From Chlamydiia bacterium (GTDB lineage: Bacteria > Chlamydiota > Chlamydiia > Chlamydiales > Parachlamydiaceae): DNA of 16,031 nucleotides. The stretch covers positions 1-16,031 of the forward strand of contig JBBSJT010000051.1 of NCBI GenBank assembly GCA_038257035.1, written 5' to 3'. Positions 4,283 through 16,031 of this stretch are shown one piece after another (within the stretch, counting starts at the first letter, position 1; every line of letters starts with the position of its first letter). Below the pieces are notes generated by a model. The model saw nothing but the letters and a program-made list of their open reading frames with translations, did no database searches and had not been told where the DNA came from. A program made the position numbers and the translations under genes.

Positions 4283-5146
4283 CTACCTATTGTCCATCAT
4301 ATAAAGTAAAGCTTCATCACCAAGTGTCATCAAGACTGCTTGTCTTAAAATGCCTTCAAAATTTTTATAGTCAGAACCTGTACTTTTGATTCTTTTTGCA
4401 GCGTAGCGTGCAATGTTAATACCGTCGCGAATGGTGTAATTTTCATTTCCTGCATGTGCTTTTTGTAAAAAATTGACCACGTAATCCATAATGTGTTCAT
4501 CAACAAAGGGAAGATTTTCACGCAAAATACGTTTTTCTTCTTCGGCTTCAGGAAAATCCAAATAAATTTGCGGTTGCAAGCGGCTGTGAATATATTCAGG
4601 AATCTCAAACGTTGAAGCATCATCATTCATGGTGGCACAAATTCGAAATTCGGGATGTGCCGTGATTTTTAATCCCGCAACGATCGATTCAATGTAACGA
4701 CGCGTATCAAGAAGGGGAGCAAGTGATGCCCAGGATTTTTCACTCATACGGTTGCCTTCGTCCAAAATGCAGACGCCGCCACGGATCATGGCCGTAACAA
4801 GTGCAGAGGCTACATAACGGATGCCGCCTGCTTTATCAATGACCGGCGTAATGAGTAAGTCTTCCGGTCTTGTGTCCATTGTGCATTGAAAAATGTAAAC
4901 TTCCTTTTCTAATTTTTTGGCAGCGGCATAAGCCAAAGTTGTTTTACCAACCCCCGGTTTTCCAATCAGGCGGGGATTTAAAGGGATGTCCCTGTCATCG
5001 ATCACAAGCCAAGCTGCAAGTAACTGATTTAAAACATCTTGCTGTCCGATCCACTCAAATTGAAAAACGTCCGGGAAACCAAGGGCAATTTCAACGCCTT
5101 GAATATTAATTTTGCTTTCGTGTTCGTTAGGTAGCGGGTGATTCAT
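4283..5146 (-). CDS. MoxR-family AAA+ ATPase (AAA_5 / CbbQ-NirQ-like)
   Basis: Walker A GKPGVGKT, Walker B CILDEGNR, sensor HPEFRICATMN, and SRL arginine finger. Confidence 0.9.
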   Translation of the reverse strand: MNHPLPNEHESKINIQGVEIALGFPDVFQFEWIGQQDVLNQLLAAWLVIDDRDIPLNPRLIGKPGVGKTTLAYAAAKKLEKEVYIFQCTMDTRPEDLLITPVIDKAGGIRYVASALVTAMIRGGVCILDEGNRMSEKSWASLAPLLDTRRYIESIVAGLKITAHPEFRICATMNDDASTFEIPEYIHSRLQPQIYLDFPEAEEEKRILRENLPFVDEHIMDYVVNFLQKAHAGNENYTIRDGINIARYAAKRIKSTGSDYKNFEGILRQAVLMTLGDEALLYMMDNR

Positions 5147-5153
5147 TATTTTC

Positions 5154-5888
5154 CTATCTTTTGGATGCTTTGTCTGAGCCGAATTTAAGTCCTGCTCTTG
5201 CGATATTTTCTCGTGCGTTAGGATAAAGGGTTTCTATATGTTTTAAAAGATCTTCCGTAACTTTGCGCATGGAATTTTGCCCGACAGGACATCTGCACAT
5301 AATGCGCATGAAGCCTTGCTGTTTTGCAAAATTAGTTATATCTTGTTCATTCACATAAATCAATGGCCGAATGATTGTGATTCCATAATCTACCATATGA
5401 ATTTTTGGCAAAGTCCCTGCAAATTCAGCTTTATGAAAAAGATTCATCATCACGGTTTGTGCCTGATCATCCAAAGTGTGTCCAAAGGCAATTGTTGTGG
5501 CACCAACAGAAAGTGCTGCATCAAAAAGCAGTTTACGTCTTTCTCGTGAGCAATTGTAACATTCAAGCGTTTCTAGTTTCTGGGTGGATTCACGGATGTG
5601 AAGCGGCACTTCAAGTTCATCGCATATGCCTTTTAAATAATTTTGATTTACACCGGCCCCACACGAAAAATCTCCGCTTACATGGACAGCTTCCATGTCC
5701 AAAACAGGAAACCCACGACCCGATATGGCTTTTAAAAGATAAAGTAGACTTAACGAATCTTTGCCCCCGCTCAAGGCAATTGCAATTTTTGAGACATCTT
5801 TTAACATCTCATAGTCATAAAGTGCTTTTCTTAGTGTGCTTTCTAATTTTTTGGCAAGGCCTGTATGGGCCAGATTAGTTCTTGTCAT
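5154..5888 (-). CDS. ttcA: tRNA 2-thiocytidine(32) synthetase, TtcA family (PP-loop ATPase)
   Basis: PP-loop ALSGGKDS, CYNCSRERR (CxxC), GHTLDD, IIRPL, and C-terminal CRCP. Confidence 0.85.
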   Translation of the reverse strand: MTRTNLAHTGLAKKLESTLRKALYDYEMLKDVSKIAIALSGGKDSLSLLYLLKAISGRGFPVLDMEAVHVSGDFSCGAGVNQNYLKGICDELEVPLHIRESTQKLETLECYNCSRERRKLLFDAALSVGATTIAFGHTLDDQAQTVMMNLFHKAEFAGTLPKIHMVDYGITIIRPLIYVNEQDITNFAKQQGFMRIMCRCPVGQNSMRKVTEDLLKHIETLYPNARENIARAGLKFGSDKASKR

Positions 5889-5954
5889 TTTGATCTTACT
5901 TAAAAAAGGATGAATTGATTATGATAAAGAAAACTTTTATTTAATTAAAGAGGG

Positions 5955-6182
5955 ATGATGAATAAAAAAATTGGACGTAACGATCCTTGTCCTTGCGGAT
6001 CAGGAAAAAAATATAAACAATGTTGTTTTTTGACGAAGGGCGGCCAGGGTGTAAAAAGAAAATTAACAGCTAAATGGATCAATCAGCCAAAACCAACAGA
6101 TTTGATGGAAAGAACGTTTGGCGCTGCAATTAAAGAAATGGAAAAACATTCCGAAGTAAAACCTGACGATAAAAAGGAATAA
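5955..6182 (+). CDS. SEC-C motif zinc-binding small protein
   Basis: [27 protein letters not shown] upstream. Confidence 0.9.
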
Positions 6183-6194
6183 AAAAACTTGCTC

Positions 6195-6218
6195 AAAACC
6201 CCTCTTAAACGGGGTTTT
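6195..6218 (+). terminator. Intrinsic terminator-like hairpin after the SEC-C gene
   Basis: AAAACCCC-tcttaaac-GGGGTTTT. Confidence 0.55.
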
Positions 6219-6249
6219 AACATTATTTTACTTTTTTATAAAAAAATAC

Positions 6250-6279
6250 TTGTGCCGAAAAATAAGAATTTGCTATAAC
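6250..6279 (+). promoter_or_regulatory. Probable tRNA operon promoter
   Basis: TTGTGC (6250-6255), 18 bp spacer, TGc-TATAAC (6274-6279), ~30 bp before tRNA-Thr. Confidence 0.45.
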
Positions 6280-6309
6280 CTACCCTTCAACAAGTGAATA
6301 ACTTGTTAC

Positions 6310-6382
6310 GCTGACATAGCACAGTTGGTAGTGCACCTGATTTGTAATCAGGGGGTCGTGAGTTCGAGTCTTACTGTCAGCA
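6310..6382 (+). tRNA. tRNA-Thr(TGT)
   Basis: Acceptor stem GCTGACA/TGTCAGC-A, anticodon arm CCTGA-TT-TGT-AA-TCAGG, T-loop GTTCGAGTC. CCA not encoded. Confidence 0.97.
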
Positions 6383-6389
6383 ATTTCTC

Positions 6390-6471
6390 GGGGGTATCGC
6401 CTAGCGGCAATGGCAAGAGACTGTAAATCTCTCGACTTCGGTCTGCGTTGGTTCGAGTCCAACTGCCCCCA
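6390..6471 (+). tRNA. tRNA-Tyr(GTA)
   Basis: Acceptor stem GGGGGTA/TGCCCCC-A, anticodon arm AGAGA-CT-GTA-AA-TCTCT, long variable arm GAC-TTCG-GTC, T-loop GTTCGAGTC. Confidence 0.97.
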
Positions 6472-6491
6472 TATTTCATTCAAAGGCTATT

Positions 6492-6516
6492 TCGGTTGAT
6501 TAAACTAGTCAACCGA
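6492..6516 (+). terminator. Stem-loop downstream of tRNA-Tyr
   Basis: TCGGTTGA-ttaaactag-TCAACCGA. No clear U-tract. Confidence 0.45.
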
Positions 6517-6536
6517 TCTCATCCAAAAAGCGGGTT

Positions 6537-6645
6537 TTCCCCACTTTTACCCCACTTGTCCACAACACATAACAATAATTAGCAAAAGACTAAAAACATG
6601 TGTGTTGATGACAAATTACTATTTTACTGGGGTAAAAGTGGGGAA
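6537..6645. repeat. 18-bp perfect inverted repeat upstream of the integrase; candidate integrase arm-type binding sites
   Basis: TTCCCCACTTTTACCCCA (6537-6554) and TGGGGTAAAAGTGGGGAA (6628-6645). CCCCACTT is repeated at 6539 and 6550. Inner partial pairing TTGTC..CAACACA / TGTGTTG..GACAA. Confidence 0.8.
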
Positions 6646-6769
6646 TTCGCGTATTATCTCCCTTCTAAATTTATCAATCTCCGAGAGATTCTTAAGTTTG
6701 CGTCAAGAGAATATGAATCTCTTGTCCGTAATTTTTCAATGAAAATTAAGCAAGAAGAAGGGTTATAAT

Positions 6770-7831
6770 ATGGCATCAATCAAAGAACTTCCGGATAAAG
6801 ATGGTAAGACACGTTATCACGTTCAGATAAGAATAAAAGGATTTCCTCCGCAATACGGTTCATTTAAACCTAAAACGGATGCTGACAGATGGATTCAACA
6901 AACTGAATCTGCTATCCGAGAAGGTCGACACTTTAAAACTACAGAATCTAAAAAACATACTCTTGGCGATTTAATTGATCGCTACATTCGAGATATTCTT
7001 CCCACTAAGAAAAAAGTAGAAGAGAAGCAAAAAACTCAATTACTTTGGTGGAAAAAACAAATCGGCACTTACTTGTTATCAGACGTGACTTCTTCTATGA
7101 TTGCCGAACAAAGAGATGTTCTTCTTCGTGAAACAACTACAAGAAAAACCCTCCGCAGCCCTTCTACCGTAGTTCGATACCTAGCAGCGCTTTCACATGC
7201 TTTCACAATTGCCGTTAAAGAATGGGGATGGATTGAAGATTCTCCCACAAGAAAAGTGTCAAAGCCACGTGAACCACGCGGTAGGGTAAGGTTTCTTGAT
7301 GAGAAAGAAAGGCTAAAGCTCCTCGAGGCGTGCAAACAGAGTACAAATAGCTATCTATACACAATTGTTGTTCTTGCTCTCTCAACAGGAATGCGACAAG
7401 CAGAAATACTCAATCTTAAGTGGAGATCGGATGTAGATTTGGAAAGGGGTCGGGTTATTTTGCATGAAACTAAAAATGGAGATATTCGTCAGATCGCTAT
7501 AAAAGGCCATGCACTTAAACTTTTAAAAGATCTAGATAAAGTTCGCCGCTTAGACACTCAACTTCTATTCCCCGGAAAGTATCCCAAAAAGCCAGTCAAA
7601 ATACGTTCTGCATGGGAGAATGCTGTTAAAAATGCAGGCCTTACCAATCTGCGTTTTCATGATTTAAGGCATTGCTGTGCCTCATACCTCGCCATGAATT
7701 CAGCAAGCCTTGCAGAAATTGCCGAAGTGCTGGGTCATAAAACCCTTGCGATGGTTAAACGCTACGCGCACCTATCGGACAGTCATACCGCCGATGTTGT
7801 ATCTAAAATGAACGAGAAAATTTTTGGGTAA
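6770..7831 (+). CDS. int: Tyrosine recombinase / phage-type integrase, intact
   Basis: Full catalytic set: STGMRQAE (R), ETKNG (K), FHDLRH (HxxR), LGHK (H), KRYAH (Y). N-terminal arm-binding-like segment RYHVQIRIKG. Confidence 0.95.
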   Translation: MASIKELPDKDGKTRYHVQIRIKGFPPQYGSFKPKTDADRWIQQTESAIREGRHFKTTESKKHTLGDLIDRYIRDILPTKKKVEEKQKTQLLWWKKQIGTYLLSDVTSSMIAEQRDVLLRETTTRKTLRSPSTVVRYLAALSHAFTIAVKEWGWIEDSPTRKVSKPREPRGRVRFLDEKERLKLLEACKQSTNSYLYTIVVLALSTGMRQAEILNLKWRSDVDLERGRVILHETKNGDIRQIAIKGHALKLLKDLDKVRRLDTQLLFPGKYPKKPVKIRSAWENAVKNAGLTNLRFHDLRHCCASYLAMNSASLAEIAEVLGHKTLAMVKRYAHLSDSHTADVVSKMNEKIFG

Positions 7832-7838
7832 ATATTTT

Positions 7839-8867
7839 ATGAAAGCAAATCCTGTCACGATACCCGAAAGTCAATCTTCACTGAAATTGACGAAAACAAA
7901 GAAACGGAGCGCTTGGATAACGGGGCGACTCCGAGCCATTGCGGAAGGTTCCGGATTAAAAATTATCCTTAATAAAGCTTTAGAGTGTTTTTTTGATTCT
8001 TTGAGAAATCAAACTACAAAAACAAACTACAAAAAGGCGTTTGAGGCTATGTCTTTAAATGATCTTCTTGTTGTGGAAAGCTCTCTAGATGACTTTAAAG
8101 GCAATTATCTAGCAATTATTGAGAAAATCAAAAGTTGTTCATTTAAAAAGGGGAAAAGCAGATCGATTCGTACTGCATTATCATCATTTACTTCTTATCT
8201 AAATTCGGAATTAGAAGGCGGCATCGACAGAGGAGATGATTTGATAGATAAAGACCGCAAGGAGTATGAGGAAAAACTTGTACCCTTAAGCATTGAAGAA
8301 TGGGAAAAGTTTATTGCCTCTCTTCGTCAACTCAACCAGCGCGATGCAATGATTGCAGAACTGCTCCAATTGGCCAACGGCTCTGTATTTGCTTGGCTGT
8401 CTGATGAATTTTTAGAAGAAATTAAAAGAAAAAGGCAACAAAGTTATAAGGATCTGAAGCTATCGTGCTTGAAAAAAAGGCGAAGAGATAAACCGGCAAA
8501 AGGGACACCATTAGTTTCTCTTAAAATGATTCTAGAAATGCCGATAGAATATGTTTCTTTCGATGAAAAATGGTTGAGATTTGATAGAGATTATTTAGGT
8601 GGCATTGTTGCTCAATGTTATCCGTTTCCAAGCCATATTTTTACTGAACTTGAAAAAATTATGAGACCCAACACAGAGTTTGTTTTTACAACTATTGAAG
8701 GCGCTCCTGTAGCTGAAAATCAGTTAAAGAGAAGTTGCAAAAGGGCATCAGAAAAAGCTAAATTAAGTAAGCATGTTTCACCTAAAATGATCCGAATACC
8801 TATTCCTGAACTTGTGTATTGCCCATATTGTGAAAAACCTCGATGGAATGGCGAATGTTATTGTTAA
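7839..8867 (+). CDS. Degenerate tyrosine-recombinase-fold protein resembling chlamydial plasmid pGP7/pGP8, with a C-terminal CxxC..CxC tail
   Basis: LSIEEWEKFIASLRQLNQRD..IAELL, FPSHIFTEL, FVFTT..G.PV...QL and SPKMIR match pGP8-type integrases as I recall them. The first catalytic Arg and the terminal His/Tyr are not seen. ATG at 7839 preferred over TTG at 7824. Confidence 0.7.
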   Translation: MKANPVTIPESQSSLKLTKTKKRSAWITGRLRAIAEGSGLKIILNKALECFFDSLRNQTTKTNYKKAFEAMSLNDLLVVESSLDDFKGNYLAIIEKIKSCSFKKGKSRSIRTALSSFTSYLNSELEGGIDRGDDLIDKDRKEYEEKLVPLSIEEWEKFIASLRQLNQRDAMIAELLQLANGSVFAWLSDEFLEEIKRKRQQSYKDLKLSCLKKRRRDKPAKGTPLVSLKMILEMPIEYVSFDEKWLRFDRDYLGGIVAQCYPFPSHIFTELEKIMRPNTEFVFTTIEGAPVAENQLKRSCKRASEKAKLSKHVSPKMIRIPIPELVYCPYCEKPRWNGECYC

Positions 8868-8998
8868 TGAAGTGTGTCTGTATGTGGCATGTGATGTAGT
8901 TATTATTGTGGTTTGTGGTAACTTTTTGTTTTATTGAGCATAGGCCTGTAGAAGCCTCGCCAATGATAAAATCGAAACCATAAAAAAAGGGCATCTTT

Positions 8999-9217
8999 AT
9001 GACGGCAGTTGTAAAACATGAAAATAAAATTGAAGACGAATATTTAACATTTAATCAAGCCACACATCGCTTTCCGGCATTTTCAGAAGGTTCATTGCGA
9101 TGGCATCGCTTTAATAATACCGGCGGTTTCAATCGTTGTGTCCGAAAAATCGGCAGAAAATGTGTCATTTCGCTTTCAGAATTTCTAAAATGGATAGAAG
9201 AACAAACAGATTTATAA
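8999..9217 (+). CDS. Excisionase-like winged-HTH DNA-binding protein
   Basis: YLTFNQA...FSEGSLRW...VRKIGRKCVISLSEFLKWIE is an Xis/AlpA-like pattern. Confidence 0.75.
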   Translation: MTAVVKHENKIEDEYLTFNQATHRFPAFSEGSLRWHRFNNTGGFNRCVRKIGRKCVISLSEFLKWIEEQTDL

Positions 9218-9422
9218 AATAATTGCAATAACCTAAAACAAATAACAAAAGAAGACTATAAATGACAATAAAAACAAGTTAAGGATATATCCAAGAGTCA
9301 ATTAAATATTTTGGAAAAATAAAGAATTTGATACAGTGATGATTTACATATTTTAACGAAAGTAAAACAAAAGAATAAAAGAGATCGCGTTATGCATTAA
9401 AGGTAAATATGAAAGAAGATAC

Positions 9423-9460
9423 AAAAAAAGCTATGAGAAAATCTGACCTTTCTCATAGCT
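9423..9460 (-). terminator. Intrinsic terminator, minus strand
   Basis: AGCTATGAGAAA (9429-9440) and TTTCTCATAGCT (9449-9460) form a perfect stem. The A-run at 9423-9429 gives the U-tail on the minus strand. Confidence 0.8.
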
Positions 9461-9498
9461 GAATAGCACGGTATGGAAAACACCTGTCGCTAGTTGTA
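9423..9498 (-). ncRNA. Putative ~76-nt antisense (counter-transcribed) RNA
   Basis: Has its own consensus promoter (9533-9505), a 5' stem-loop UAGC-GAC-AGGUGU-UUUCC-AUACC-GU-GCUA, then a 12-bp terminator stem and a U-tract. Confidence 0.65.
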
Positions 9499-9504
9499 TC
9501 TCTT

Positions 9505-9533
9505 AGAATAGCAAAGATTATCCTGAATTTCAA
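9505..9533 (-). promoter_or_regulatory. sigma70-type promoter, antisense to the element's genes
   Basis: TTGAAA (9533-9528), 17 bp spacer, extended -10 TGc-TATTCT (9510-9505). Confidence 0.7.
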
Positions 9534-9612
9534 TGTAAAATATTTTCTTGATAAACAGGCTTGTCTTAAAATTTTGCTTTTTTCACATAACGCCGACTCC
9601 AAAAGGGGTTAA

Positions 9613-9882
9613 ATGGCGCCTAAATTCATAAATGACTTAATTAAAGAGCTTGGCGAAAGCCAAACGGTCAAGATTGACCAACTTGTTAAAATCGGGCTTT
9701 TTGGCACTGCCCAATCTGCCCGTCAGGCAGTGCGTTCAGGCCGCCTCCCACACATAGCAATATCACCTCGACGTCGACTTATAACCCGTGAGCATGTAAT
9801 TCAATTTATTACAGAAAATTTCCGTGATAAAATAGCAAACACCGACCTCTTTTCAAAGGAAGGCGTCAGTAATGATAAATGA
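9613..9882 (+). CDS. HTH_17/AlpA-like DNA-binding protein
   Basis: QSARQAVRSGRLPHIAISPRRRLITREHVIQFI is an excisionase-type wing. AGGGG RBS upstream. Confidence 0.7.
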   Translation: MAPKFINDLIKELGESQTVKIDQLVKIGLFGTAQSARQAVRSGRLPHIAISPRRRLITREHVIQFITENFRDKIANTDLFSKEGVSNDK

Positions 9883-10036
9883 GCAATTATTTAAGCTTTT
9901 GAATCATCTTTCAGATGATTTTATTAACAATCTTGAAATGAAAATTAAAACAAAAAAGCCGCTGAGAGCTAATCAGTCGGCTTACTATGAATATAAAGTA
10001 ACATTTAACAATTGTGACATAGGGCTCGTTAATTGA
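9872..10036 (+). CDS. Small hypothetical protein (54 aa) overlapping the end of the HTH gene
   Basis: Manual translation MINEQLFKLLNHLSDDFINNLEMKIKTKKPLRANQSAYYEYKVTFNNCDIGLVN*. AAGGAAGG RBS upstream. Below the ORF-track size cutoff. Confidence 0.5.
   Translation: MINEQLFKLLNHLSDDFINNLEMKIKTKKPLRANQSAYYEYKVTFNNCDIGLVN
9952..9983 (-). terminator. Intrinsic terminator-like hairpin, minus strand
   Basis: aaaa-AAGCCG-CTGA-gagctaa-TCAG-t-CGGCTT, with the A-run giving a U-tail on the minus strand. Confidence 0.5.
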
Positions 10037-10075
10037 AACGTATACCACGAAGGAACACTTACAACGGATCTAATC

Positions 10076-12046
10076 ATGCCTGATAGCATAGCAGAAATAC
10101 AACAAGAAACGTTAGAAAACGACGTGAAACCTAAAGAACCCCTCACTACCGAATCGACGGAAGAAAATAGCGAAGAAATTCAAGACGGAGAAGAAGAAAC
10201 CACTAAGGAGAAGCCACCTGAAAAAATCTGTTATATCCTTGCAGGAGCCGGTACTAAAGACCTTAGGCTTTCACAAAAAAATGCAGGGAAAAAAGACTTA
10301 ACTTTTTTTGATAATGACTGGGGTTGGTGTTTTCAAAATGAAGAAGATGCATTAAAGATAGCTGAAAAATATACCAGAAAAGGCAAGGAAATTAAGGTTT
10401 CTCCTTGGTTTAGTGAAAGAGCCTATAGAAAATGGCACGGCACAAAATCAGAAAAAAGAGCAGTTGGAAAAGAAACTAAATATCTTATTTCATTACAGGA
10501 CGTGAATGAGAAAAAAAAACATATCGTTGATGCTTGCAACAAAGCAGGTTTTGATATCAGTTGCTTATATGAAGATAGCCCAACGGAAGACTTTAGCGAC
10601 TTAGAAAAGAAAACGTTCGAATTTTTAAAGAAGGACCGCTTTCCCGATTGGATAAAAGATAAGGAACTTTGCGAAGAGTTTAAAAAAGAATGGAAAGATG
10701 TCGAAGAGGAGATTAAAATTAATCCTTCTGGAGGTATAGAATATCAAATCGTCAAAAAACTCAATGAAACCCATGCCGTTGTTAGGCATACACAAACTTA
10801 TTTTTTGAGAGAAGAACCTCATGTTATTTTTGGCGGAATAGACTTTATCTTAGAAAGCAAACAGTCTGTAAAAGATTTTTATGAAAATAAAATTATTGAA
10901 TGTTCAGATGGAAAATTAAGGACTGAAGCTGAGATCTGGATTAAAAGTCCGCATAGAAGGGAGTATAAAGGGATCACATTTGACCCAACAGGCCATGCAG
11001 AAAAAAGAGGGCTTTATAACATATGGAAAGGATTTTCATTTACGCCTTCTAAAAATGGATCGTGCGAGTATTTTAAAGAGTTTGTCAAGAATGTTATTTG
11101 CTCTGGAAATTCAGCTTTTTTTGAGTACCTTTGGTCTTGGATGTCAATGTTAGTTCAAAAACCGCATATAATCCCAGAATCGGCTATTTTGTTAATGGGT
11201 TTACAAGGCACCGGAAAAGGCTTTTTTGCCAAGACCTTGGGCAAATTATTGGGTCAACATTTCCTTCATTTAGATAACATGGCGCGCCTGCTAGGCAACT
11301 TTAATAATCATATGAAAAACGCTGTCTTAGTTTTTGCAGATGAATCTATTTGGGAAGGCGGAAAAAAGGACATAGGAAAACTTAAAGCAATGATAACAGA
11401 AGAAACTGCTGTTATTGAGCAAAAAGGGAAAGATCTTTTTACAATAAAAAACTACAGGCACTTTATTTTTTCAAGCAATGAGGATTTGCCTGTCCATTTA
11501 GATCATGACGATAGAAGATTTTTTGTTTTAAAGGTTAGTGATAAGCATAAAGAGGACCATGATTATTTTAAGGCTATTTCCAAAGAGCTAGAAAATTGTG
11601 GGTGCGAAAGGCTTCTTTATGAGTTCCAAAAAGAAGATATATCAGATTTTAACCCTAGAAAAATCCCTTTAAATGTCGATGCTTTTGATGTGAAAATGCA
11701 AGACGCTTCATCTGCCGAAAATTATTTGTTCCATGCTTTAAGAGGGGGAAGTTTCGATATAGGAAACACATCGCCTTCATATGGTTGGAAAGATCAAATT
11801 ATGATTTCGTCAGTTTACAGTGATTACTTGGCCTGGTGCTTAAAAGAGCAGATTCTACAAAACAAAATAATTGAACGCCGGCTCTTTGGAAAACATCTCT
11901 CTAAACTCTTAAGATCAACAACAAAAACAAAACCTTCGGCACCTAAAGGAGAAACCAGACAAGAGTGTTACTGTTTTCCAGACTTACAAATCTCAAGAGC
12001 AGATTTTGAAAAGGCTTATAAAGTAGATTCTAGCATCTGGGATTAA
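10076..12046 (+). CDS. SF3/D5-like replicative helicase (DUF5906 / NrS-1-type helicase domain)
   Basis: Walker A GLQGTGKG, Walker B LVFADE, motif C FSSN, and DRRFFVL. Preceded by a FDP...YNIWKG segment typical of phage primase-helicases. The N-terminus is acidic and has no recognisable primase motif. Confidence 0.85.
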   Translation: MPDSIAEIQQETLENDVKPKEPLTTESTEENSEEIQDGEEETTKEKPPEKICYILAGAGTKDLRLSQKNAGKKDLTFFDNDWGWCFQNEEDALKIAEKYTRKGKEIKVSPWFSERAYRKWHGTKSEKRAVGKETKYLISLQDVNEKKKHIVDACNKAGFDISCLYEDSPTEDFSDLEKKTFEFLKKDRFPDWIKDKELCEEFKKEWKDVEEEIKINPSGGIEYQIVKKLNETHAVVRHTQTYFLREEPHVIFGGIDFILESKQSVKDFYENKIIECSDGKLRTEAEIWIKSPHRREYKGITFDPTGHAEKRGLYNIWKGFSFTPSKNGSCEYFKEFVKNVICSGNSAFFEYLWSWMSMLVQKPHIIPESAILLMGLQGTGKGFFAKTLGKLLGQHFLHLDNMARLLGNFNNHMKNAVLVFADESIWEGGKKDIGKLKAMITEETAVIEQKGKDLFTIKNYRHFIFSSNEDLPVHLDHDDRRFFVLKVSDKHKEDHDYFKAISKELENCGCERLLYEFQKEDISDFNPRKIPLNVDAFDVKMQDASSAENYLFHALRGGSFDIGNTSPSYGWKDQIMISSVYSDYLAWCLKEQILQNKIIERRLFGKHLSKLLRSTTKTKPSAPKGETRQECYCFPDLQISRADFEKAYKVDSSIWD

Positions 12047-12047
12047 A

Positions 12048-12361
12048 TTGGCATATTAAAAGTTAAGTTGGGCATATCTTGGGCATATTATCAAAATTTC
12101 ATAAATTGCTTATGTTTAATGCCTGGGCATATTAGGCGTATTAGACTTAAGAAAAGTAAATTACTAGAAAATCTGAAAAACGTGTTTTTTATCAATTTTT
12201 GCAAAAGCTTAGAAAAATGTAAAAAAAAGTGTTTTTTCAATCCTGGGCGATTAAATACACTGCCCAATATGTCTAATATGTCCAAGCATTAACAATTAAT
12301 GATTTAAGTGTTTTTTTAATATGCCCAAACAATATGCCCAAAGCTGTTTTGATATGCCCAA
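12048..12361. repeat. Putative replication origin: converging iterons around an AT-rich core
   Basis: TTGG(G)CATAT(T)-type copies at 12048, 12068, 12079, 12123, 12133. Inverted AATATG(C/T)C(C/T)A copies at 12266, 12275, 12318, 12331, 12351. Begins right after the helicase stop codon. Confidence 0.8.
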
Positions 12362-12746
12362 AAGGAAAAGAGTTTATGGAAGCGTAGATATTAAAATCAC
12401 GCAGTAGCGAGAAATCGTCCTTAAATGATGTAAGAAGGGACGGCCAGATAGAGGCGAAGAAAAAACTATGAAAAGCTAACATGAACAAAAGAAACAGCGT
12501 ACAGCCCGTAATTAATTCCAGAGGTTACAATGAAAGAGTATAGTGACCAGCCACAATTGAGGAAGAACTTTAAGAAGAGCGTGGCAGGCACGAAGCGAAA
12601 AGATAGGGAAAATTCAAAATCATTGAGAAAGCGGTTTAATCAGCGTACAATCGAATTTTACAATCTAACACCGAAGAGTCTAGGGTTAGTAAATTGTGAA
12701 GTGTCGCTAATTACACTAGCTTTCTGAAAGCTTTAAGCCATTCAAT

Positions 12747-12782
12747 CATTATGAAAATTACATGCATTATGAAAATTACATG
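12747..12782 (+). repeat. Perfect 18-bp tandem duplication
   Basis: CATTATGAAAATTACATG at 12747-12764 and again at 12765-12782. Confidence 0.9.
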
Positions 12783-12794
12783 GTAGGACAAAAT

Positions 12795-13175
12795 ATGACA
12801 GATAACGAAGAATTATCGGATAAGCAACGGTCAGCATTAATCCACCTTGTAAGTGGACATACTATAGAGCAAGGGTGCAAAGATGCAGGGATTAGTCGAG
12901 ATTGTTTTTATCGGTGGCTAGAGAATCCAACATTCAAAGCGGAGCTTTCAAGACTTAGGGATGCGATATTTCTTGATGCTATAGAGCAACTTAAACACTC
13001 AATGAAATTAGCTTGTCACACTTTACAGGCACTTTGTGAAGACCCAGAATGTCCCCCAGCCGTGAAGCGTGGCGCGGCTTCCGATATTATCAGCCATTTA
13101 ATGAAGTGGAGGGAGACGCAGGACCTAGAAAAAAGAATTACACAGCTAGAAGAGCATGTTAAGGGGGTAAAATGA
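12795..13175 (+). CDS. HTH protein resembling small terminase / phBC6A51-like HTH with a C-terminal coiled coil
   Basis: LSDKQRSALIHLVSGHTIEQGCKDAGISRDCFYRWL..P.F (HTH), a helical body, then DLEKRITQLEE. ATG at 12795 follows an AGGA RBS, so it is preferred to 12762. Confidence 0.6.
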   Translation: MTDNEELSDKQRSALIHLVSGHTIEQGCKDAGISRDCFYRWLENPTFKAELSRLRDAIFLDAIEQLKHSMKLACHTLQALCEDPECPPAVKRGAASDIISHLMKWRETQDLEKRITQLEEHVKGVK

Positions 13176-13471
13176 CAAAATTATCAATTCGTTTAGATCG
13201 TATTGAAGAAGGAATCAGGCCAAAAGAACGAATGGCTCTTTGTTTTGGTAGGTGGAATAAGCTTAATGAGGATTGTAAACGACAGCATGAAGAATTCAAA
13301 GCCTTACATGGTGAGCTAGGCAAGGTTACATTTTATCACATGCAAGACTATTGTGGATACAAAGGTGAAGAGGAAAGTTACGAAGATTTTATTAAACGCA
13401 AACGGAAAGGCACAGGAAAAGGGAATTGTTATTGTTGGTGGCCGGAACTCACAGAAGATGAAGAAGTTTAA
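13172..13471 (+). CDS. Hypothetical protein translationally coupled to the TerS-like gene
   Basis: ATGA start/stop overlap, AAGGGGG RBS, and an N-terminal RLDRIEE coiled-coil-like motif. Confidence 0.7.
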   Translation: MTKLSIRLDRIEEGIRPKERMALCFGRWNKLNEDCKRQHEEFKALHGELGKVTFYHMQDYCGYKGEEESYEDFIKRKRKGTGKGNCYCWWPELTEDEEV

Positions 13472-13660
13472 AAAAGGACGGCTAATTCATTCCCTATTAC
13501 GAGAGGCATGTTTTAAAATAATTAATTGCCGATTTGGCGGCTCTCAGAGTTATTTAATAAACATAAACATATGAAAATTAAATATTTAAAGTTGATTTTA
13601 AAGTAATTAAAATGTATTATTTCTTTTAGTTTAATAAATTTAAAACCATAAAAGGTATAT

Positions 13661-14454
13661 ATGTTTAATTTTTTTAAAATCGGCTTATTCGTGATTGTCG
13701 CATTTTTGTTGTGTATAGGAGGGTATTTCCTTTTAGAAAAAGAAGAATGGGAATGGCAAAAAGCTAAAAAACAAGTCAATCAATTTGCTGAATTCGCTTT
13801 CGAAGGTACATCCAATGAGAAACCAGATAAAATAGAATTCATGAACTTGCAAACAAAATTCATCGAAAATGATGTGGATGATGATTTCAAAATTGGTTTT
13901 ATATTAACTGCGTCAATAGCGGCGCAAGAAAGTAAAACAATAAAAAGGAACTTTTCTGAATTCCTTGTAAAAAGAAGGTCGCTGGATATTCAGACGATCA
14001 AATTTTAGATCAAATTTTAGATAAGTTTAATATTTTAAATGACGATATTAAAAACAAGGTTAATCTATCTAGGGCACATGGATATTCAAATGTACAAATT
14101 GTAGATTTTCTCGGCAGTACTGGACCTTTTTGTAATACTGTTAAAGAAATCATAGGATACCAAGTCGATTTAAATATTTGCTTATTAGACAAAGACGGTT
14201 TTTGTTTAAAGACATTATCTCATCAAACAGAAAAAAATGATATTTTTGATAATCTTAATAAAAATGAAGATATAATCAATATAATTGTGCCGGGAAAAGG
14301 TAAAAAAATTATTCAAAAAACCATTCCAACAACTATTCCGAAAAAATTAGCAAAAAAAGTGAAATCAGTAATTTTTTGGCCTGTTATTAGAGCAGAAACG
14401 AAATTGGTTGATTTCAGCCTAGATGGAGATGAATTAAAACGAGGAAGATCATGA
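13661..14454 (+). pseudogene. Membrane-anchored cargo protein split by a single frameshift (~264 aa if restored)
   Basis: The 115-aa ORF with an N-terminal hydrophobic helix ends at 14008. An overlapping frame is open from 13960 to TGA at 14454 (AGYSDDQILDQILDKF...RAHGYSNVQIVDFL...LLDKDGFCL...KRGRS*) and has no ATG of its own. Confidence 0.7.
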
Positions 14455-14685
14455 GGAAAAAAGCAGTATCTCTGATGAGGAATGAGGTGGGGTTAAGGTT
14501 ATCGTAACGTGCACGCATCATGTGGAGCATATGAGAAAGTTCGTACATTCACCTGACTTCGTGACTATTATTTAGAACCTAAAGACTGTAAGCGCTATCC
14601 GCCCTATAAACGAAGAAGTTGTGAGTTTCGTGAAGCATTAGAAGATTAATTTCCCTTTTTAATTTATCTCCCATTGAGGTCGTTT

Positions 14686-14868
14686 CTGGAATATTACAAG
14701 AAAGCCGATTTTTATGGATACTATGAGACGGGAGATTTTGCCAGATTACGAAGAGCTTAAATGTGTCCCCTATTACGATTATTCAGGTTATTCAGTGTCA
14801 TTTACAGAGAAAAACGTGTCGAATTTCGCCCATATTACGAAGCAGAGTTTTTGCCATATTACGAGAAG
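14686..14868 (+). repeat. Degenerate direct-repeat array, core (TTTT)GCCATATTACGA, spacing ~24-27 bp
   Basis: TATTAC-type cores at 14692, 14719, 14744, 14771, 14833 and 14857. Confidence 0.6.
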
Positions 14869-14990
14869 TTAAAATCTTTAAGGCGGTTTTCTGTTCCATT
14901 ACTCCCAAGACCCCAACCGTACGGGATGCTAATACAATAATAATAAAATATTGGTGATTTTTTTGATAAGAATGGGGGGGGGGGCTCCTC

Positions 14991-15063: not shown

Positions 15064-15870
15064 TTATTTTTCAATACCTAAGTACTCCATCATTATTTTG
15101 TGAAGCAGTTCGTGAGGCAAACATCTGAAGGCACTATCGGGATCTTTAAACCCCCGAATCATTTCTTTTGGAACAGAAAAAAGTATTTCTTTGCACAAAT
15201 TCTCTATACGGGACGCAAATTGCCCATTTTGAAATCTCTTAAAATGTAGAAAAGGACTTGGAAGACTTTTTATTAATTTCCGTTCAAATGAAGGGAGTGA
15301 GCTAATGTCACTGATCTCGGAGCGACAATATTTATTTAGGTAATTTTCCAAGTCTTCAAATCGGCTACTTGGAAAATTGGCGAGATTTTGACGCGTACAA
15401 GCATTTTGAAAGACTTCTATTTGCTTCATTGTTGAACTAAGCGGAGCTTCAAAAACCCCATCAAGAAGGCCCGTTTGATGGTAGTTTGATAATGCTTTTA
15501 CTAAATAACCAATTTGAAATAGTGACACCATACCTATTGCTTGAGCATGCGCGGGAAGATCGTAAGCTAAAAGCCAGGCTCTTTCTCTAAGAGGTAATTT
15601 GTCATGATCCTGCCTTAGATGCGACATTAAACTTCGAATGTCGACCCCTAATTTTAAGGCGGCAGCGTCAAACATATCTTCCTCCACTAAAGACGGTGGA
15701 GGGAGACTTTCTATAAGCTGTCTGCGCACAACTTCTTTTGTATGCTTGTCTACTGAACATAGATTCAAAAATTGTTTTCTTTCACAATTCAAGAAAATAT
15801 AATCAGTCAACTCTCTTGGAAAGTTTTCAGGAGAATTTAATTGATGGTTTTCTAAACTTGTAGATATCAT
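15064..15870 (-). CDS. F-box-like protein with a second F-box/SOCS-like motif at the C-terminus
   Basis: N-terminal NFPRELTDYIFLNC....FLNLCSVDK. C-terminal FRCLPHELLHKIMMEYL. Confidence 0.7.
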   Translation of the reverse strand: MISTSLENHQLNSPENFPRELTDYIFLNCERKQFLNLCSVDKHTKEVVRRQLIESLPPPSLVEEDMFDAAALKLGVDIRSLMSHLRQDHDKLPLRERAWLLAYDLPAHAQAIGMVSLFQIGYLVKALSNYHQTGLLDGVFEAPLSSTMKQIEVFQNACTRQNLANFPSSRFEDLENYLNKYCRSEISDISSLPSFERKLIKSLPSPFLHFKRFQNGQFASRIENLCKEILFSVPKEMIRGFKDPDSAFRCLPHELLHKIMMEYLGIEK

Positions 15871-15957: not shown

Positions 15958-16031
15958 TATTAATTTCAGAATTAATTGACTTTTATATAAATGTTTTATA
16001 TGGAATCTAATTTAACTGGTTCTTGGGAAGA

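Follow-up and report, generated by a model that had tools for sequence, protein, structure and literature searches.

A TerS-carrying island at a tRNA-Tyr gene of an environmental chlamydia: a candidate phage satellite

The island and its host

The window, meaning the whole 16,031-nt stretch of DNA analysed here, carries a compact island inserted at a tRNA-Tyr gene. It has a run of co-directional ORFs (ORF list), and the cassette that the first-pass annotation placed right after tRNA-Tyr is real, with the coordinates of its parts correct and its right end misplaced. The features are as follows.

6310-6382: tRNA-Thr (TGT) in the host flank, just 5' of tRNA-Tyr (ARAGORN)
6390-6471, plus strand: tRNA-Tyr (GTA), the integration target (ARAGORN; Rfam RF00005, 55.5 bits)
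6418-6472, plus strand: attL core, the 55-nt 3' part of tRNA-Tyr, with its direct repeat outside the window
6535-6645: integrase-proximal arm with putative arm or operator sites, a TTTACCCCACT tandem and an inverted repeat
6598-6768, plus strand: 56-aa ORF 5' of the integrase gene, no family match, within a stretch 85% identical to the sister element L040
6770-7831, plus strand: tyrosine integrase (PF00589, E 2e-34; phrog_1, E 3e-65)
7824-8867, plus strand: divergent second recombinase-like ORF, 347 aa, weak phrog_1 match
8999-9217, plus strand: small HTH protein, 72 aa, candidate excisionase or regulator (HTH_17, 17.4 bits)
9613-9882, plus strand: small HTH protein, 89 aa, candidate AlpA-type regulator (HTH_17, 18.7 bits)
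10076-12046, plus strand: replicative SF3 helicase (DUF5906; PF19263, E 7e-25)
12048-12360: candidate replication origin, with four TGGGCATAT iterons on the plus strand, an A+T-rich spacer of about 140 bp and four iterons on the minus strand
12762-13175, plus strand: small-terminase-family (TerS) protein, 137 aa (phrog_7344 and phrog_2538, E about 5e-6)
13172-13471, plus strand: 99-aa partner ORF that overlaps the stop of the TerS-like gene, no family match
13661-14008, plus strand: 115-aa ORF with a hydrophobic N-terminus, putative cargo, no family match, absent from L040
15064-15870, minus strand: 268-aa ORF, putative cargo, without a Pfam or PHROGs match, placed within the element by the revised boundaries
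16022-16031, plus strand: end of the window contig (C51), whose last 9 nt, TTGGGAAGA, are identical to the first 9 nt of contig C48 read in reverse complement

The host is an environmental, amoeba-type chlamydia. The closest helicase relatives lie in records titled Chlamydiae, Parachlamydiaceae, Chlamydiia, Parachlamydiales and Rhabdochlamydiaceae, one close relative being on a contig of a genome (G020) from the same family as the window's own. The left-flank order ttcA, SEC-C protein, tRNA-Thr, tRNA-Tyr is kept in 5/5 family genomes tested. Record titles and flank synteny together bear out the earlier assignment of the host to the chlamydiae, which are obligate intracellular bacteria. Hc1 is also found in the window's genome, a draft of 210 contigs that is 95.8% complete; the control also gave a match in Bacteroides.

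Boundaries of the island

No att repeat lies within the window, and a copy identical to the attL core at 55/55 positions sits on contig C48 of the same genome (14649-14595). The right end therefore lies beyond 14984, the boundary drawn in the first-pass annotation, and beyond the end of the window; with the C48 part, the element measures 11,979 bp (about 12.0 kb). Synteny with G002, a genome of the same genus, and with L040 marks the C48 copy as the predicted far end. In G002, tRNA-Thr and tRNA-Tyr are followed by 1.7 kb and then a second tRNA-Thr, and the region 5' of this second tRNA-Thr matches C48 (82% over 149 nt). L040 carries the TerS-like gene, its partner and then two membrane-protein paralogues on one contig, and these paralogues are homologous to C48:14869-16792. 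One arm of a 19-nt inverted repeat stands at the start of reverse-complemented C48, where C51 and C48 overlap by 9 nt. Related elements have tRNA-3' direct repeats of the same kind, 45-85 nt long.

A search for relatives with an empty tRNA-Tyr site, suggested earlier, leads to G002, where the element is absent and about 125 nt of integrase-proximal arm remains 3' of tRNA-Tyr. This remnant includes the TTTACCCCACT tandem and not the distal arm of the 18-nt inverted repeat. Circular junctions and raised coverage had also been proposed as signs of activity; the contigs of one public run yield neither a joint nor raised depth over the element.

Integration and replication modules

The integrase-proximal arm has its TTTACCCCACT tandem at 6535-6557 and a perfect 18-nt inverted repeat at 6537-6554 and 6628-6645. 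Integrases 42-79% identical to that of the window adjoin tRNAs in related loci, and dN/dS of the gene against L040 is 0.06. The following ORF (7824-8867), previously called recombinase-like, has no Pfam match, and it matches phrog_1 weakly (E 2.4e-5), in the N-terminal part of an integrase. Its positional equivalents in relatives align with PF00589 over about positions 17-132 of 172 (22-29 bits), ending before the C-terminal catalytic part. The case for the earlier name is weaker than the first-pass annotation had it. The ORF is probably non-catalytic, and may have an accessory recombination or DNA-binding role.

The two small HTH ORFs, annotated earlier as Xis-like and AlpA-like, reach just 17-19 bits on HTH_17, where the cut-off is 27, so that both names are weak. 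Homologues of ORF 8999-9217 occur in L023, L030, L027, L069, L070 and L040 (dN/dS 0.20), and those of ORF 9613-9882 in L023 and L040 (dN/dS 0.32).

Both phrog_1156 and phrog_1829 match only the helicase half of the 10076-12046 protein. Its N-terminal domain of about 220 aa has no recognised fold and no match in the Atlas or the PDB; in G033 a homologous domain precedes a P-loop region that is RepA/AAA_25-like by eye. No primase domain is recognised in the window ORFs, and a separate DnaG-like primase is present in relatives. The iteron array starts directly 3' of the helicase stop. With at most one mismatch, TGGGCATAT has 11 matches in the window, 8 of them within 12048-12360, and 0/200 shuffles reach 11. 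An array of the same layout, though of different iteron sequence, stands 3' of the helicase stop in the 8 related loci inspected (5 by k-mer count, the other 3 by eye). The PF19263 match and the shuffle test uphold the SF3 helicase and the iteron region of the first-pass annotation.

The TerS-like gene and its partner

The true start of the TerS-like gene is probably 12780 or 12795, because relatives begin MVxQNMTDNE or MTDNE. The window protein scores 27.1 bits against PF13022, below the cut-off of 27.9, and its match to PHROGs terS lies largely in the HTH half (residues 15-89). Its family, with 5778 representatives at E<=1e-3, gives a fuller match: 50/50 aligned members match phrog_2538 over their full length, with a best E of 2.8e-16. 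Structural comparison is weaker, with Foldseek against the PDB giving E>=0.18 and VIA giving Z 8.6 for T4-type TerS, within the helical-hairpin background. Profile membership thus sustains the earlier TerS-like call for this protein, but the fold matches lend it little. In a phage collection, 19/21 records matching the protein are Streptococcus satellite phages, at 22-28% identity and 77-95% coverage (18 at 82-95%), and the best match is a TerS-like ORF whose end overlaps the beginning of a TerL gene.

The TerS-like gene is translationally coupled to its 99-aa partner. A small ORF of the partner type lies 3' of the TerS-like gene in 8/8 chlamydial loci inspected and in L040; in those 8 loci it encodes 74-124 aa (74-105 in 7/8) and shares an N-terminal M..RLKRIE motif. 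The AF2 model of the partner is poor (pLDDT 52). Both genes are under purifying selection, with dN/dS of 0.11 for the TerS-like gene and 0.10 for the partner.

Cargo, absent genes and possible helpers

The cargo would comprise two paralogous membrane proteins on C48 together with ORFs 13661 and 15064. The 268-aa product of the latter is not found in 5 related genomes, and the C48 pair was assessed through its L040 homologues, which have no Pfam or PHROGs match. No long ORF lies in 14010-14460.

Pfam and PHROGs return no head or morphogenesis family among the 12 element ORFs, and no capsid, portal, TerL, partition ATPase or conjugation gene among the element ORFs. TerL, portal and HK97 capsid are likewise absent from the 210-contig draft genome for the families searched (PF03354, PF03237, phrog_2, PF04860, PF05065). 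The earlier statement that capsid, portal and large terminase are missing from the element therefore holds, and on these families extends to the genome; classification as a tailed prophage is rejected on the same absences. An integrative conjugative or mobilisable element was also considered and set aside, as the window's element ORFs contain no relaxase, coupling protein or type IV secretion family (Pfam, E<=0.01). Genes for capsid size or interference (cpm, ppi, rpp) are likewise not identified in the element.

Phages isolated from chlamydiae are small ssDNA microviruses, and we know of no tailed phage isolated from any chlamydia. Tailed-phage genes in environmental chlamydiae are already on record (PMC5010888, PMC7846284), the former naming only Chlamydiamicrovirus. 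The present survey points to possible helpers in the clade, with a TerL match of E<=1e-15 in 23/200 genomes (hand count of the result table). A TerL fragment adjoins a portal gene in G008, of the same family as the window's genome; some TerL genes of relatives contain internal stop codons (e.g. G008, G187), and TerS-TerL pairs occur in G168 and G211. Relaxing the cut-off to E<=10 still gives no TerS-profile match among the ORFs beside ten chlamydial TerL genes. The unknown tailed helper phage postulated by the first-pass annotation gains plausibility from the TerL homologues in relatives, but no helper was found and its existence stays conjectural. No paper describing satellites in chlamydiae was found.

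Related elements across Chlamydiota

The island is one of a broader set of tRNA-inserted 5-13 kb elements in Chlamydiota. The TerS-like gene occurs in 43/400 genomes of the order. Each of the 8 TerS-like loci inspected has the partner gene and an integrase, of the tyrosine type in 7 and the serine type in 1. Six kinds of replicase occur among them, and no virion-protein family is found among the 40 neighbouring ORFs scanned (Pfam). One of these elements, 9.1 kb in length, has a 50-nt att repeat at its ends. Helicases 33-49% identical to the window's define a further 16 loci, of which 10 have a window-type integrase and none a TerS-like gene, so the backbone can exist without TerS. Matching att repeats are present in 6 loci, and the compact 5-13 kb layout recurs across the related loci fetched. 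Pfam finds no virion-protein family in the ORFs of 16 related loci (8/16 helicase loci and 8 TerS-like loci), nor do Pfam and PHROGs in L040.

L040 is 85% identical to the window at the nucleotide level in the shared stretch; it retains the integrase, HTH, TerS and partner genes and has a different replicase. Across five shared genes dN/dS is 0.06-0.32. Relatives carry PvuII restriction-modification, AbiE and toxin-antitoxin pairs as cargo or defence, along with ankyrin, TPR and Fic proteins.

How the island may spread

The island is best read as a TerS-carrying PICI-like satellite that a helper phage would mobilise, a reading given a probability of about 0.5. Having no virion genes and its own integrase, origin and packaging gene, it probably spreads in the capsids of an unseen tailed phage. 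A signal, possibly helper infection or induction, would cause the small HTH proteins and the integrase to excise the island, after which the helicase would open the iteron origin and the island would replicate. The TerS-like protein and its partner would then bind a pac-like site on the island, and the TerS-like protein would recruit the helper's large terminase, packing island DNA into helper capsids that would carry it to other chlamydial cells. A more tentative generalisation, rated somewhat below even odds, is that environmental chlamydiae host a guild of true phage satellites, 5-13 kb long and inserted at tRNAs, whose sole means of hijacking is a two-gene module of TerS and a small partner from a new family, which redirects the TerL of tailed phages yet to be seen.

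Alternatively, the island might be an integrative plasmid-like replicon that is independent of phage, with the TerS-like protein and partner forming a DNA-binding regulator or partition-type pair, and with movement by, for example, chlamydial DNA exchange in one host cell. This is rather unlikely, yet several results fit it: the integration and replication modules are the best supported, helicase loci combine with an integrase (10/16) and never with a TerS-like gene (0/16), the window's TerS match is concentrated in the HTH half, and neither a helper in the genome nor a significant fold match for the TerS-like protein was found. Against it, the family aligns with phrog_2538 at full length in 50/50 members and has relatives both within satellite prophages and adjacent to a TerL gene, and the element ORFs include no relaxase, partition ATPase or conjugation gene. 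The TerS-partner pair also stays constant while the replicase is swapped, a pattern more in keeping with a transfer module than with a regulator tied to one replicon.

It is improbable that a once-mobile satellite or island has become fixed and domesticated, retained for the sake of its cargo while transfer has ceased. Such elements do decay, as G002 keeps only its 125-nt arm remnant at the same site, and the contigs of one public run show neither excision nor an increase in copy number; yet the genes for integration, replication and TerS remain intact and have low dN/dS, and the 85% identity of L040 combined with its swapped replicase points to recent recombination among active elements. An eroded tailed prophage that has lost its structural genes is very improbable: prophages too have a tRNA-adjacent integrase, a phage-type helicase and a TerS-family gene, and TerL genes of relatives do contain internal stop codons (G008, G187), but the two att repeats match exactly, every core ORF is intact and evolves under purifying selection, the compact layout recurs with no virion families matched in the loci scanned, and the longer version intact in relatives that the first-pass annotation had named as grounds for doubt appears in 0 relatives inspected, the 16 related loci and L040 being without virion families.

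If the islands are satellites, they would speak indirectly for tailed dsDNA phages that infect chlamydiae inside amoebae. They would then also be a hitherto overlooked path of gene flow for the cargo seen in relatives, which includes ankyrin, TPR and Fic proteins as well as defence systems. TerS with its small partner forms a minimal candidate hijack module, testable in vitro. The pairs of iteron origin and helicase might serve as small replicons for environmental chlamydiae, for which we know of no genetic tools. Even as plasmid-like replicons, these elements would make up a widespread, apparently undescribed integrative replicon family in Chlamydiota.

Comparison with known satellites

In SaPIs the replicase gene lies directly 5' of an iteron origin, and the island has the same arrangement. 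Its order and size, likened earlier to both PICIs and P4-like satellites, fit a TerS-carrying PICI. A tRNA-adjacent integrase, AlpA-type HTH candidates and an SF3 helicase (D5/DUF5906-type) are common to P4-like elements and the island, but P4 to our knowledge carries no TerS, and no primase domain is recognised in the island. P4-like membership is rejected, since general Pfam and PHROGs scans match no Psu, Sid, Delta or Ash among the ORFs; PMC10085698 lists seven components for that group.

The same text gives five PICI core components, namely integrase, regulation (alpA/merR/stl), primase-replicase, an optional capsid morphogenesis gene and TerS; it describes the morphogenesis gene as often absent outside Proteobacteria and still counts elements without it as PICI 'Type B' (PMC10085698). 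The island has the integrase and TerS and has no capsid morphogenesis gene. Regulation is represented by the two ORFs with sub-threshold HTH_17 scores (17.4 and 18.7 bits, cut-off 27), and primase-replicase by the helicase and iteron origin with primase domain unrecognised. With the TerS-PICI (SaPI type) of the SatelliteFinder model, as set out in de Sousa et al. 2023 (PMC10085698), the island shares an integrase beside att at one end, small candidate regulatory HTH genes, its own TerS, the lack of TerL and virion genes, a length of about 12 kb and cargo or defence genes in relatives. It differs in its obligate intracellular chlamydial host, its sub-threshold regulators, the lack of an identified primase, cpm, ppi or rpp, and a TerS-like gene always accompanied by a small partner of no known family.

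Among annotated proteins, the nearest relatives of the TerS-like protein are encoded by Streptococcus satellite prophages (Javan, e.g. MK448513.1), whose order of integrase, helicase and TerS-like gene resembles that of the island; these prophages differ in their Firmicutes host, their replicases and regulators, and their low identity. In Javan479 the TerS homologue is also followed by an overlapping ORF, of 91 aa and with a similar N-terminal motif; at 15% identity to the island partner, no homology is claimed. By description, the island can be set beside marine VEIMEs, tycheposons and PICMIs, which PMC11389934 presents as small, integrative elements without virion genes that are thought or shown to ride phage particles. 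Mobilisation of PICMIs seems, in that account, to need only a DNA motif (PMC11389934), whereas the island encodes a TerS-family protein of its own.

Extent of the element and its insertion site

The window is the whole of one contig (G000:C51) of a 2.37-Mb draft genome (210 contigs, completeness 95.8%). The two tRNA genes and the main element features, the last of them on C48, a second contig of the same genome, are:

6310-6382: tRNA-Thr, left of tRNA-Tyr
6390-6471: tRNA-Tyr, followed by a run of plus-strand ORFs
6770-7831, plus strand: tyrosine integrase (PF00589, E 2e-34; phrog_1, E 3e-65)
7824-8867, plus strand: recombinase-like ORF (no Pfam match; weak match, phrog_1 N-terminal part)
8999-9217 and 9613-9882, plus strand: small helix-turn-helix (HTH) ORFs (HTH_17, 17-19 bits only)
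10076-12046, plus strand: DUF5906 superfamily-3 helicase (E 7e-25)
12762-13175, plus strand: small terminase (TerS)-like gene (five PHROGs small-terminase families, E 5e-6 to 2e-4)
C48 14967-15488 and 16214-16795: paralogous membrane-protein genes (173 and 193 aa) at the element's right end, conserved in the sister element L040

The first-pass annotation read this stretch as a cassette resembling a phage-inducible chromosomal island (PICI). Its integrase, helicase, iterons and TerS-like gene stand, while the Xis-like and AlpA-like calls fall under threshold. The observation as a whole is real, but its right boundary needed correction: 14984, where the element had been taken to end, is the position of a poly-G terminator-like hairpin, and the att repeat lies on C48 instead.

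No repeat of the tRNA end occurs inside the window. The terminal 55 nt of tRNA-Tyr (6418-6472) have a copy of 100% identity on C48 (14649-14595), which also bears a second tRNA-Thr(TGT) 2.4 kb beyond the repeat. In G002, a genome of the same genus, the order is ttcA, a SEC-C protein, tRNA-Thr, tRNA-Tyr, 1.7 kb and a second tRNA-Thr, and C48 matches the sequence preceding the second of these tRNA-Thr genes (82% over 149 nt). C51 ends in the 9 nt with which the C48 reverse complement begins, at one arm of an inverted repeat that has no other occurrence in the genome. On metagenome contig L040, tRNA-Tyr precedes a sister element whose integrase is 85% identical at the nucleotide level. The two HTH genes, the TerS-like gene and the partner gene are present as well, and after them, on this one contig, come two paralogous membrane-protein genes, homologues of C48:14869-16792. 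Because of the G002 order, the 9-nt end overlap and the single-contig linkage in L040, C48 is taken as the right flank, and the element therefore spans from 6473 past the window end into C48. Its length is 11,979 bp, provided that C51 and C48 abut.

G002 is without the element, but its site is not clean: about 125 nt of the integrase-proximal arm remain directly after tRNA-Tyr (L015, G002:C105, 3557-3680), the scar of an element that once occupied this site. Extra copies of the tRNA-Tyr 3' end, 52-54 nt long, are found in two genomes of the family. The G013 copy (L016, G013:C11, 3654-3705) lies ~950 bp past the gene and encloses two small ORFs. The G008 copy (L018, G008:C103, 3362-3551) lies on a separate contig with toxin-antitoxin-like ORFs and is preceded by 135 nt resembling the window element's right end on C48. 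The tRNA-Tyr gene looks like an insertion hot spot.

One soil-metagenome run contains 67% of the element's sampled words. Its contigs on flank and element are short, with depths of 0.2-7 over both, and show no joints; a loose contig end at 6418 carries C48 sequence and represents either attR or attP.

The proposed chlamydial host is borne out by a left flank syntenic in 5/5 same-family genomes and by the chlamydial affinity of the helicase, whose closest relatives come from Chlamydiae, Parachlamydiaceae, Chlamydiia, Parachlamydiales and Rhabdochlamydiaceae records; one close relative sits on a contig of G020, a member of the window's own family. Hc1 is present in the genome, and the control matched in Bacteroides too. 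Two host-flank ORFs (480-2114 and 1-183, both minus strand) have only weak matches of F-box type, at 20.5 and 17.8 bits, under cut-offs. Amoeba symbionts typically carry eukaryote-type domains. A 268-aa ORF inside the element (15064-15870) appeared F-box-like by eye, but family scans gave no match and it is left unnamed.

Replication module and its relatives

When one mismatch is allowed, TGGGCATAT has 11 matches in the window, a count reached by 0/200 shuffles, and 8 of them lie within 12048-12360. These iterons directly follow the helicase stop, four on the plus strand, then an A+T-rich spacer, then four on the minus strand. The same plan, each time with its own sequence, follows the helicase gene in 8/8 related loci inspected (five flagged by k-mer count, three read by eye). 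This comparative pattern is the strongest support for a helicase-plus-origin replicon. PHROGs "DNA primase" families cover the helicase half only of the 10076-12046 protein, and its N-terminal domain has no match in the Atlas or PDB. A 488-aa ORF elsewhere (L004, G033:C4, 703-2169) joins the ~190-aa N-terminal domain of the window helicase to a P-loop region called RepA/AAA_25-like by eye. If that call is right, the domain would be a mobile module common to unrelated replicative helicases, and possibly an origin-binding domain.

A related-loci search with the single helicase sequence returned no loci, and one with a three-sequence helicase alignment returned 16. The window-type integrase (42-79% identical) is present in 10/16, in one case split into pieces. 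It lies directly after a tRNA gene in nine loci (Thr-CGT, Asn and seven times Leu-TAA), and in 5/9 tRNA-3' direct repeats of 45-85 nt bound elements of 7.2-13.5 kb. Besides integrase and helicase, the shared core comprises iterons, a DnaG-like primase, small ORFs and a truncated recombinase-like ORF. Among the cargo are ankyrin, TPR, Fic, MFS, methyltransferase and HicB genes. A few bins carry the labels Verrucomicrobia, Acidobacteriota, Thiotrichales or Desulfobacula. In L024 (CP058704.1, Parachlamydiaceae bacterium SSA5, 6609-20164), whose integrase is 79% identical to the window's, two successive copies of the tRNA-Asn 3' end lie at distances of 10.2 and 13.5 kb from the gene, an arrangement that suggests two tandem islands.

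The main rival to a PICI-like element is an integrative replicon that is independent of phage, a reading we regard as possible but doubtful. In its favour, a TerS-like gene occurs in 0/16 of the helicase loci.

The TerS-like gene and its partner

The case for a small terminase at 12762-13175 is carried by sequence profiles. The window protein scores 27.1 bits against PF13022 (cut-off 27.9). A word-based search finds four close relatives only, and a profile search of 1.84 billion representatives yields 5778 matches at E<=1e-3, of which 550 reach E<=1e-10; most are proteins of ~125-135 aa aligned over their full length. An alignment of 50 members combines the window protein with P0003 and 48 of the 57 proteins listed next; the nine excluded ones were longer or two-stretch proteins. 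Every member matches phrog_2538 (terminase small subunit; best E 2.8e-16), and 45/50 match PF13022. Although PF13022 is named after a transposase HTH, an insertion sequence or transposon was rejected, as no transposase adjoins the gene in any locus inspected.

In an annotated phage collection, 21 records match the family, 19 of them Streptococcus satellite phages (coverage 77-95%, with 18 at 82-95%; identity 22-28%); one Clostridium phage TerS is matched over the HTH only. In the best match, a "Bacteriophage sp." record of 11.5 kb, the homologue overlaps a large terminase (TerL) gene at its start (phrog_3717, E 1e-48). The single member P0006 finds no related loci among viral contigs.

The earlier TerS assignment is upheld by these profiles, and structure gives neither a clean pass nor a fail. 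The AlphaFold2 (AF2) model (pLDDT 75) has an HTH followed by two long helices. Foldseek (PDB, BFVD) and VIA return TerS chains (2ao9, PaP3, NV1, Sf6, T4-type gp16) at non-significant levels only, and a PDB sequence search with the TerS profile returns helical-repeat noise only, with 2ao9 at E 0.2.

The TerS-like profile matches 43/400 genomes of the order, several times in some, and 10/48 in the window's family, G000 apart. In 8/8 larger contexts a small ORF comes after the gene (74-124 aa; 74-105 in 7/8), and these partners have an N-terminal M..RLKRIE motif in common. An integrase lies within a few kb in each, a tyrosine integrase in 7/8 (36-64% identical to the window's) and a serine recombinase in 1/8. 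Replicases in the eight loci are varied (AAA_25 with DnaG-like primase, Toprim-AAA_25, DUF927 with DnaG-like primase, DnaB-like, DUF3987), and cargo includes PvuII restriction-modification, AbiE, ankyrin, NUDIX and YhcG nuclease genes. One element of this set, 9.1 kb long, has a 50-nt tRNA-Met repeat at either end. L040 shares integrase, HTH, TerS-like and partner genes with the window but has a different replicase; dN/dS between the two is 0.06 for the integrase, 0.10 for the partner and 0.11 for the TerS-like gene, and the HTH genes have values of 0.20 and 0.32.

The window's partner, a 99-aa ORF (13172-13471) overlapping the TerS-like stop, has no family match and a poor AF2 model (pLDDT 52). 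In the Streptococcus satellite Javan479, the TerS-like homologue is likewise followed by an overlapping ORF, of 91 aa with a similar start and 15% identity, which is only a lead towards a possible counterpart.

An 18-nt perfect tandem duplication, CATTATGAAAATTACATG (two copies, 12747-12782), lies across the annotated TerS-like start. Relatives start later, so it falls in the TerS-like leader, where it may act in regulation or binding. Past the TerS module, three listed copies, and a fourth by eye, of a 20-nt ..ATTACGA motif lie in a region free of long ORFs (14759-14864). The motif is not kept in L040; a pac-like site is only a guess.

Tailed-phage genes in chlamydiae

The element was first described as having no capsid, portal or large terminase gene. 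Pfam and PHROGs families for capsid, portal, tail and large terminase are not found among window ORFs, and five TerL, portal and capsid profiles (PF03354, PF03237, phrog_2, PF04860, PF05065) have no match in G000, where controls matched. Virion-protein families are likewise absent from the 40 neighbouring ORFs scanned with Pfam in the eight TerS-like loci. A prophage remnant is unlikely.

Across 200 genomes of the order, 23 have a phrog_2 match at E<=1e-15, and the window's family accounts for three of these. Most of the 129/200 phrog_2 "TerL" matches are weak P-loop cross-hits of 20-35 bits and were not counted. A TerL fragment followed by a portal gene is found in G008, and in G211 a phage-type DNA polymerase lies next to a TerS-TerL pair. 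In G168, such a pair lies ~6-9 kb from a window-type integrase adjacent to tRNA-Leu. That locus (L072, G168:C1:3462000-3481999, 4828-14269) runs from tRNA-Leu through the integrase, a truncated recombinase-like ORF, a DnaB-like helicase and a RelE-type pair to a convergent small and large terminase pair. No capsid or portal family was found in the 14 ORFs scanned with PHROGs. The 20 kb hold no att repeat, so integrase and terminase pair need not form one element; L072 may be a terminase-carrying relative. Of the ORFs flanking ten chlamydial TerL genes, none is matched by the window TerS profile.

Two published passages likewise place tailed-phage genes in environmental chlamydiae. For Protochlamydia naegleriophila, an island next to tRNA-Thr is described as having a putative large terminase (PMC5010888); for P. 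massiliensis and Criblamydia sequanensis, a terminase and tail tip protein L are described on plasmids (PMC7846284). Chlamydiamicrovirus is the sole isolated chlamydial phage named in the first of these papers (PMC5010888).

Comparison with known phage satellites

A PICI-like element is the best-supported mechanism, at a probability of roughly one half. A full-text literature search for chlamydiae with phage satellites or phage-inducible chromosomal islands gave nothing relevant, and "chlamydi" is absent from the main text of PMC10085698, whose supplements may list hosts. The suggested kinship with P4-like satellites fails. Passages of PMC10085698 list five core parts of a PICI. The element has the integrase and small terminase; for the replicase part it has a helicase and origin but no recognised primase; its HTH candidates for the regulator are under threshold; and it lacks the capsid-morphogenesis gene, an optional part. 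Accepting the regulator would make the element a four-component PICI, "Type B" in that source's terms. The new features are the obligate intracellular host and the constant pairing of TerS-like gene and partner.
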